A DNA stretch of 19,275 bases from Escherichia coli (lineage in GTDB: Bacteria > Pseudomonadota > Gammaproteobacteria > Enterobacterales > Enterobacteriaceae): NCBI RefSeq assembly GCF_003334335.1, contig NZ_QOWQ01000054.1. One strand, written 5' to 3'. Made by a program: the position numbers and the translations under genes. How positions within the stretch are numbered: position 1 is the stretch's first letter; each line of letters opens with the position of its first letter. Below, piece after piece: positions 10,710 through 12,246 of the stretch. The notes below the pieces were generated by a model. The model searched no databases and had not been told where the DNA came from. It saw nothing but the letters and a program-made list of their open reading frames with translations.

Positions 10710-11540
10710 TCAGATGCGCTTTCCATCAAGTAACGTTTCCATTGGCGTCCGCCCATTGCTCATTTTTCCCTCATGGGGTCGCTCATTATTATAGTGAGCC
10801 AGCCATTCATCAAGATCCGACTGTAATGTATCAAGATCGCCGTACAGTTTTTTACGGAACGTTACCTGATAAAATTCGTTCAGGATTGTTTTATGGAACC
10901 GCTCGCAGGTGCCGTTGGTCTGCGGGGGCATCGCCTTTGTTTTCGTGTGTTCTATATCGTTTATTGCCAGATAAAGCTGATAATCATGCTGCTCTACTTT
11001 GCCACAGAACTCCGTGCCTCTGTCGGTCAGTATTCTCAGCATCGGCAGGCCCTGAGACGAATAAAACGGCAGTACACGATCATTCAGTAAGTCAGCCGCG
11101 CTAATCGGTGTTTTGGTGACGTAAAGCTTACAGTGAGCCACTTTCGAGTACGTATCAACGAACGTCTGCTGATAAATACGCCCGACACCTTTCAGGTTGC
11201 CTACATAGAACGTGTCCTGCGAACCCAGATATCCCGGATGAGTCGTTTCGATTTCGCCACAGGCCTCGTAATCACTGGCTTTACGCTCCAGTGCTGCGAT
11301 CTGGCTGTCAGTTAGCTCAATGCCATCACGGGCTACTTTTTCTTCCAGTGCTTTCAGACGTTTTTTGAAATTCTCAAGGTTATGGCGTAACCAGACAGAA
11401 CGGACACCACTGCCGGAGATAAAAACGCCCTGTTTACGCAGCTCGTTGCTGGTCCGGTGCTGACCGTGTGCCGGGAAAGCGACGGCGTAATCAACAACAG
11501 CCTGTTCAGTTGCCTCATCGGTATGGTTCAATACCCTGGT
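10710..11540 (-). pseudogene. IS481-like (integrase-core/rve DDE) transposase, 5'-truncated
   Basis: Minus-strand ORF with an integrase-core fold (...RILTDRGTEF..., ...WLAHYNNERPHEGKMSNGRTPME...); the frame closes with a stop at 11544..11546 right where IS66 tnpC homology begins on the other strand, so the N-terminal DNA-binding part is missing. A 9-bp inverted repeat (10643..10651 / 10675..10683) lies in the putative IS end region downstream. Confidence 0.6.
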
Positions 11541-11547
11541 GCACTAG

Positions 11548-12246
11548 GTATCAGAAATGGCAGACAAACTCCGTCCTCTGTATATAGCGCTGTATGACTA
11601 TGTTCTGGAGGCAGGAAAGGTGCATGCCGATGACACGCCGGTAATTGTACTGGAGCCGGGTCAGGGTAAAACCCGTACCGGACGGCTGTGGGTCTATGTT
11701 CGTGACGATCGCAACGCCGGTTCGACCATGCCGGCAGCGGTGTGGTTCTCATACTATCCCGACCGCAAAGGTATCCACCCGCAGCAACATCTGGCGGACT
11801 ACAGAGGTATCCTGCAGGCCGATGCATATGCGGGTTACAATGCTCTTTACGAAAGCGGTCAGGTAACCGAAGCGGCTTGTATGGCACATGCCCGATGCAA
11901 GATCCACGATGTACATGTCCGCCATCCAACGACAGTAACGGGAGAAGCGCTCCGTCGTATCGGGGCACTGTACGCTATCGAGTCTGAGATCCGCGGCAGT
12001 CCGGCAGAAGAGCAACTGGCGGTCAGAAAAGCCAGAACGGTACCGCTAATGCAGTCGTTGTATGAGTGGCTCCAGGGGCAGATGAGCACGCTGTCGCGTC
12101 ACTCGGATACGGCGAAAGCGTTCACCTATCTGCTGAAGCAATGGGACGCCCTGAACGAATACTGCAGTAATGGCTGGGTGGAGATCGACAATAACCTGTG
12201 TGAAAACGCCCTCCGGGTAATTGCACTGGGGCGGCACTCTATCTGT
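11548..12246 (+). pseudogene. tnpC: IS66-family transposase (tnpC) internal fragment; 5' truncated near 11545 and interrupted at about 12235..12246
   Basis: Translation ...[38 protein letters not shown]...[30 protein letters not shown]...[16 protein letters not shown]...[14 protein letters not shown]...[18 protein letters not shown] matches the conserved core of IS66 TnpC as I recall it; homology stops right after ALGR. Confidence 0.8.

Follow-up and report, generated by a model that had tools for sequence, protein, structure and literature searches.

Plasmid-borne and chromosomal versions of the Aat/dispersin system have both been described: in EAEC and ETEC aatD is carried on plasmids (Belmont-Monroy et al., PMC7478709), and in strain NCTC 86 a chromosomal homologue of the Aat/dispersin system of EAEC 042 was reported along with an AAF-like chaperone-usher locus and disruption by transposases (Dunne et al., 2017, PMC5382810). 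The dispersin homologue of NCTC 86 has been placed in the CexE/dispersin phylogeny (PMC7344145). On the pAA plasmid, predicted matches to an AggR-type promoter pattern (WWWWWWWTATC, 21-23 bp and a -10 element) lie upstream of EC042_pAA061 (Yasir et al., PMC6392122).

The locus analysed here lies in a stretch of 19,275 nucleotides from Escherichia coli (RefSeq assembly GCF_003334335.1, contig NZ_QOWQ01000054.1), which we refer to as the window. Along its full extent the window matches a chromosomal segment of E. coli CFSAN061761 at 99.3% identity; from left to right, this segment features iro remnants; an AAF-like chaperone-usher operon; a dispersin-like gene; two transposase remnants; an aatPABCD-like operon; and debris of ISs and a group II intron. 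A gene for an AraC-family regulator is found in this segment just past the window end. The dispersin-like product shares 63% amino acid identity with Aap of EAEC 042 (RefSeq relatives call the gene a hypothetical protein), and the aatP-like gene has 67-69% nucleotide identity to the plasmid aatP genes. Judged by these comparisons, the locus is a diverged chromosomal counterpart of the plasmid aat. The two transposase remnants separate the dispersin-like gene from the aatP-like gene, as the original prediction had proposed (Table 1). They are already known to annotation: RefSeq marks two partial pseudogenes here, described by PGAP on CFSAN061761 as 'IS481 family transposase, missing N-terminus' and 'tnpC IS66 family transposase, missing N-terminus and C-terminus'. 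We consider the pair to be, very probably, a non-functional scar of IS decay produced by a single illegitimate deletion between two neighbouring, unrelated elements.

Several further features of the island were observed around this scar. The dispersin/Aat/AAF-like/AraC island sits beside the iro remnants on the chromosome. When island variants (L001 and ECONIH1, L008) are compared, identity falls to 82-84% in the gene for the putative major fimbrial subunit (9129-9644), as against 99-100% in its neighbours, which suggests that the pilin has undergone allelic replacement or diversifying selection. The interval from the fimbrial subunit gene to the aap-like gene (9645-10140) shows an indel of about 30 bp and 93% identity against the corresponding segment of WP2-W18-ESBL-10 (L006), and contains, upstream of the aap-like gene, two overlapping matches to the AggR-type pattern at 10020-10034. 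Towards the other end of the window, 17419-19049 contains another IS481-family transposase gene (17925-18896), full length and unrelated to the IS481 remnant (31% amino acid identity), which lies between two Rfam group II intron matches in opposite orientation, 17459-17535 (-) and 18972-19049 (+), and a maturase fragment. One metagenome contig (L014) lacks window positions 17836-18586. In an ETEC plasmid checked for adjacency of cexE and aatP, an IS3-family element precedes the aatP homologue.

Table 1. Features of the IS481/IS66 scar and its surroundings in window coordinates, with the queries used in the genome searches; L002 and L004 are the full-length IS481 and IS66 reference copies
Feature	Position	Strand	Description
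aap/dispersin-like gene	10141..10488	+	115 aa; left neighbour of the scar, outside both ISs
IS481-family remnant	10625..11529	-	905 bp of a 1,201-bp element, adjoining its outer inverted repeat
Retained IS481 terminal inverted repeat	10625..10651		TGTATTAGTTCAGACCTGATCTGACAG; agrees with either end of L002 (full length)
Premature stop	10710..10712	-	TGG to TGA through C to T at 10710; last 9 codons removed
IS481/IS66 joint	11529..11530		Internal IS481 directly against internal tnpC; no filler; microhomology at most 1 bp (C)
IS66-family remnant	11530..12285	+	756 bp; from tnpC codon 220 (of 519) through the right terminal repeat
In-frame TAG	11545..11547	+	TGG (Trp) in all IS66 references; TAG also in the ECONIH1-type island
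176-bp internal deletion point	12235..12236		L004 3640-3815 lost, between imperfect repeats CTGGGGCGGC and CTGGAACGTC
Retained IS66 right end	12236..12285		Ends ...CACGGTGCGCTTAC, reverse complement of the family GTAAGCG terminus
AT-rich region upstream of aatP	12286..12426	+	28% G+C; between IS66 end and aatP
aatP-like gene	12427-13569		Start of the aatPABCD-like operon
Junction query	11380-11700		36 complete E. coli genomes at coverage of at least 80%
aap-IS481 boundary query			53 complete E. coli genomes at coverage of at least 80%
IS66-aatP boundary query			40 complete E. coli genomes at coverage of at least 80%

The left-hand remnant was identified through a minus-strand open reading frame (10710-11531) that matches the NCBIfam IS481 profile NF033577 with 227 bits (E = 3.4e-67; profile positions 57-283 of 284; curated cut-off 224 bits). 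As the full-length reference we used the copy on plasmid CP056609.1 (L002; 83365-84565, 1,201 bp), which encodes a transposase of 346 aa (QLV28262.1), is bounded by imperfect terminal repeats starting TGTATTAG and has the direct repeat CCTTATT on each side. The remnant is 97.8% identical to L002 2507-3411 over 905 bp, the match beginning at window 10619/10625 and breaking off sharply after 11529. What it lacks is a block of 296 bp comprising the second inverted repeat, the promoter region and the first ~66 codons, which encode the N-terminal part of the family profile. Since only one terminal repeat (10625-10651) is present, the other end having been deleted, this is a remnant of an IS481 member and not an intact member. 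The stop codon of the reference aligns at 10683-10685, downstream of the premature stop of the window copy. Position 10710 is a C in all four relatives compared (L001, L002, L006 and L008), and 10440-10760 has no perfect match among the complete E. coli genomes. The TGG-to-TGA change is private to the window sequence: either the source strain lies outside the complete-genome collection or the base at 10710 is a sequencing error.

The same IS481-like element adjoins aap on pAA plasmids, including that of strain 042, and is full length on CP056609.1. On the pAA plasmids, however, it is situated 508 bp upstream of aap, whereas the window copy lies 137 bp downstream of the aap-like gene, in the opposite relative orientation and with unrelated flanks (window 10625, L002 2507 and L003 4007 compared). 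The insertions near aap on pAA and in the window look like independent events. On the same grounds of orientation and flanks we rejected inheritance of the aap-IS481 linkage from the pAA arrangement. We likewise rejected the IS481-family gene at 17925-18896 as a partner in homologous recombination, as its product has only 31% protein identity and there is no DNA match.

The right-hand remnant contains a plus-strand frame (11548-12234) that matches the NCBIfam IS66 profile NF033517 with 232.7 bits (profile positions 130-344 of 387; curated cut-off 180 bits). The tnpA-tnpB-tnpC organisation, found complete in two reference copies (L004 and L009), is missing from it. Relative to the reference copy of NZ_CP129349.1 (L004; 1157-3865, 2,709 bp, with the 8-bp direct repeat GGTTTTAC and a TnpC of 519 aa), the remnant has lost 1,777 bp of the 2,709 bp at its left: the IRL, tnpA, tnpB and tnpC codons 1-219. 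L004 3001-3639 aligns to window 11597-12235 at 97.5% identity; the next 176 bp of L004 have no counterpart in the window, after which the alignment resumes to the last base of the element. The right 50 bp agree with the ends of L004 and L005 at 50/50 and 49/50 bases respectively, and the terminal ...GCGCTTAC at 12279-12285 stops at the same base as the reference ends. The adjoining 8 bp at 12286-12293, CATTATTA, are a candidate copy of the target duplication, the partner of which was deleted along with the left end.

Two secondary lesions in this remnant had misled the reading from open frames alone. The original prediction placed the junction at 11541-11547; the TAG made the IS66 frame seem to begin later, and the break was misplaced accordingly, the true joint being at 11529|11530. 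Similarly, what had been read as the end of the IS66 gene near 12246, an apparent 3' truncation, is the product of a separate and later internal deletion at 12235|12236 that throws tnpC out of frame and costs the protein its C-terminus. Both elements also reach past their open reading frames, the IS481 remnant to its inverted repeat at 10625 and the IS66 remnant to its terminal repeat at 12285.

The first 67 bp of the remnant (11530-11596) are only weakly similar to L004. A tblastn search with the repaired peptide, however, matched IS66-family genes from the first residue, including copies annotated as ISSfl3-family, and DNA alignment to the ISSfl3-like copies (L009 and L010) gave 94-96% identity from 11529/11530 to about 11640, the rest being 97-100% identical to L004. 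From the ISSfl3-like identity at the very start and the L004-like remainder, it follows that two IS66 lineages are combined in a mosaic and that IS66-derived sequence sets in directly where IS481 stops; the start of the remnant corresponds to tnpC codon 220 in L004 and codon 236 in ISSfl3. The crossover in the mosaic falls near 11625-11645: the first ~110 bp are ISSfl3-like and what follows resembles the IS66 found beside ehxC on STEC plasmids.

With both remnants delimited, the joint can be described to the base. Alignment with the full-length L002 copy makes 11529 the last base with IS481 identity, and it is from 11529/11530 onward that the DNA aligns to IS66; base 11529 (C) is compatible with both parents when L010 is considered, which gives the maximum microhomology of 1 bp. 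A microhomology of this size is uninformative on mechanism. The joint links position ~905 of the 1,201-bp IS481 reference to position 1,778 of the 2,709-bp IS66 reference. Against the full-length references the DNA alignments reach E = 0 with an identity of 97-98%, which excludes chance. Two 5'-truncated transposase genes, IS481 on the minus strand and IS66 on the plus strand, abut head-to-head. This upholds the corresponding part of the original prediction on the strength of both profile matches and reference alignments, as it does the claim that both genes lack their 5' portions at one shared junction: IS481 is without residues 1 to ~66, and IS66 starts at TnpC residue 220.

Alignments to the reference copies found no terminal inverted repeat of either element at 11529|11530: both sides of the joint are internal. 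Nested insertion and IS-mediated adjacent deletion are thereby excluded, because either would leave an intact IS end at the joint. This agrees with the earlier proposal of a deletion or recombination in place of a simple insertion. Nesting of ISs is frequent, and relatives of this very island have an IS2 inside the IS481 remnant and an ISCro1 inside the IS66 remnant. A simple nested insertion, with the apparent truncation being due to a misplaced gene start, is nevertheless extremely unlikely on several counts. It predicts, besides the intact terminal repeat at the joint, that the host element resumes beyond the insertion, and this is not seen. Outside the retained ends there is AT-rich island DNA and no IS sequence (G+C of 28-35% in the flanks as against 48-56% in the remnants), so neither element is embedded in the other. 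Moreover, alignment to full-length reference ISs, a check that the original prediction had called for, defined the missing parts of both elements: against references of 346 and 519 aa, both genes lack large 5' parts. The case in which one of them is full length with its start simply misplaced is refuted by these alignments.

As both remnants come from multicopy families, a chimeric assembly of repeated IS sequences also had to be considered. An exact-pattern scan of metagenome contigs returned five matches, of which two do break in the repeats, at or inside the remnants (L016 at 11527 and L013 at 12089). The other three (L012, L014 and L015) read through the joint, which is identical in L001, L006, L008 and L011, and in all at least 36 complete E. 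coli genomes have the identical junction, with the IS481 and IS66 parts annotated there too as partial pseudogenes. As these 36 genomes were assembled independently in many laboratories and three contigs read through as well, an assembly artefact is refuted, with a probability that we regard as practically nil.

The distribution of the scar also bears on where the locus resides. The aap-IS481 boundary is present in 53 of 5,426 complete E. coli genomes. All listed junction matches are chromosome-sized records, and the two that were fetched (CFSAN061761 and NCTC 86) are both chromosomes; the locus is chromosomal in every complete genome carrying the joint. No plasmid in PLSDB has the junction, and the exact-pattern scan of GTDB species representatives gave 0 matches. 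The comparison with related plasmids, which the original prediction had suggested as a route to the ancestral arrangement, accordingly does not yield that arrangement.

We infer that the joint goes back to one deletion, before which the two elements lay near each other as separate units. The proposed history would be as follows: a 1.2-kb IS481-family element, with its transposase on the minus strand, would have lain 137 bp downstream of the aap-like gene; an IS66-family element of ~2.7 kb, with tnpA-tnpB-tnpC on the plus strand, would have ended 141 bp short of aatP. One illegitimate, transposase-independent deletion would then have fused IS481 ~905 to IS66 1,778. It would have measured at least 2,073 bp, made up of 296 bp of IS481, 1,777 bp of IS66 and any DNA between them, and each element would have lost its inward-facing end with the 5' part of its transposase gene while keeping its outward-facing terminal repeat. 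The TGG-to-TAG change in the tnpC remnant came next, followed by the 176-bp deletion between the imperfect 10-bp repeats, with the TGG-to-TGA change in the IS481 remnant confined to the window sequence. The undeleted arrangement was not found in PLSDB (searched with the junction, the IS66 part and, in distant mode, the region upstream of aatP), in complete E. coli genomes, in GTDB representatives or in metagenome contigs; the single deletion is for this reason the most economical reading and not an observed event.

Its alternatives are several successive deletions, or the illegitimate joining of two molecules that brought the aap and aat segments together. In the latter case, the aap/fimbrial segment would have had IS481 at its end and the aat segment IS66 at its start, and illegitimate recombination or resolution of an IS-rich cointegrate would have united them. 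The joint sequence alone cannot separate this from a deletion in place; the adjacency of the two genes is not universal, aap and aatP being ~38 kb apart in pAA of 042, and the island is a patchwork of IS fragments. Yet the aap-like and aat segments are similar in G+C (35% versus 28-31%) and in their divergence from pAA (63% amino acid identity for Aap and 67-69% nucleotide identity for aatP), in keeping with a shared past. Among the complete E. coli genomes, none was found in which one half occurs by itself with more of its IS preserved, and in the aat-lacking genome inspected (FDAARGOS_1276) aat was lost through an IS2-associated deletion. We consider such a joining of segments unlikely, and retain the single deletion in place.

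The island variants permit the later lesions to be ordered. ECONIH1 (L008) has the joint and the TAG and retains the 176 bp; three further genomes show the same two-piece match, so that the 176 bp are kept in four E. coli genomes. The joint and the TAG are therefore older than the 176-bp deletion. The TAG is common to all island variants examined. Beyond these shared lesions, decay of the island differs by lineage. An IS2-like element with a 5-bp duplication is found at 11460-11464, 65 bp from the joint, in two genomes that were examined: in WP2-W18-ESBL-10 (L006) it sits inside the IS481 remnant with the joint beyond it intact; in FDAARGOS_1276 (L007), the one aat-lacking genome inspected, the same IS2 is followed by a loss that takes in the IS66 remnant, aat and the AraC-family gene. 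In NCTC 86 a full-length ISCro1 is inserted in the IS66 remnant, with the joint intact, and the usher gene is disrupted.

No function is indicated for the scar, which appears to be inert. Each remnant has one terminal repeat only, the two being from different families, and both lack the N-terminal part of the transposase; both have nonsense or frameshift lesions, and the IS66 remnant is also without TnpA and TnpB. With a single outward-facing terminal repeat each, neither remnant can transpose. An Rfam scan of 10400-12600 gave no match, promoter and terminator predictions did not rise above background, and the repeat scan recovered only a stem within the IS481 end. One match to the AggR-type pattern occurs at 12335, between the IS66 end and aatP and outside the IS66 end; the pattern is non-specific, with 25 matches in the AT-rich window. 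This weak match suggests that the native upstream region of aatP may have survived. One of the sequences listed in PMC6392122 has the end ...GAGCCGCTTAC, which looks like that of an IS66-type element. Co-option of the scar, which is fixed in all variants of the island, with the G+C-rich remnants or the IS66 end acting as a transcriptional insulator that separates the aap-like and aat units or as a source of regulator-dependent promoter activity that drives them, is in our view very unlikely.

As ordinary IS decay the scar is of little importance in itself. It does provide a clean marker of lineage: the joint was already present in the single ancestor from which every known copy of the island derives, and the stages of the island's decay can be ordered by what happened later, namely the 176-bp deletion, the arrival of IS2 and of ISCro1, and the loss of aat in association with IS2. 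A further point is that this dispersin/aat locus, located on the chromosome and sharing only 63-69% similarity with its pAA counterparts, should not be taken for a segment of a pAA plasmid.

Compared with known elements and systems, the scar has three close counterparts. The IS481 element of pAA-type and other Escherichia plasmids, such as CP056609.1, has the same terminal repeat TGTATTAG and the same DDE-type transposase core. That of CP056609.1 is full length, whereas the window copy is short by 296 bp, has its private nonsense codon and is immobile. The IS66 beside ehxC on STEC plasmids (L004) and the ISSfl3-like elements (L009 and L010) share with the right-hand remnant the NF033517 TnpC core and the GCGCTTAC end; unlike them, the window retains only 756 of ~2,709 bp and differs by the TAG, the 176-bp deletion and the mosaic make-up. 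Finally, the Aat/dispersin-like and AAF-like locus of NCTC 86, the published account of which (PMC5382810) does not dissect the joint, differs from the window in its extra full-length ISCro1 in the IS66 remnant and its disrupted usher gene, but represents the same island with the same IS481|IS66 joint.
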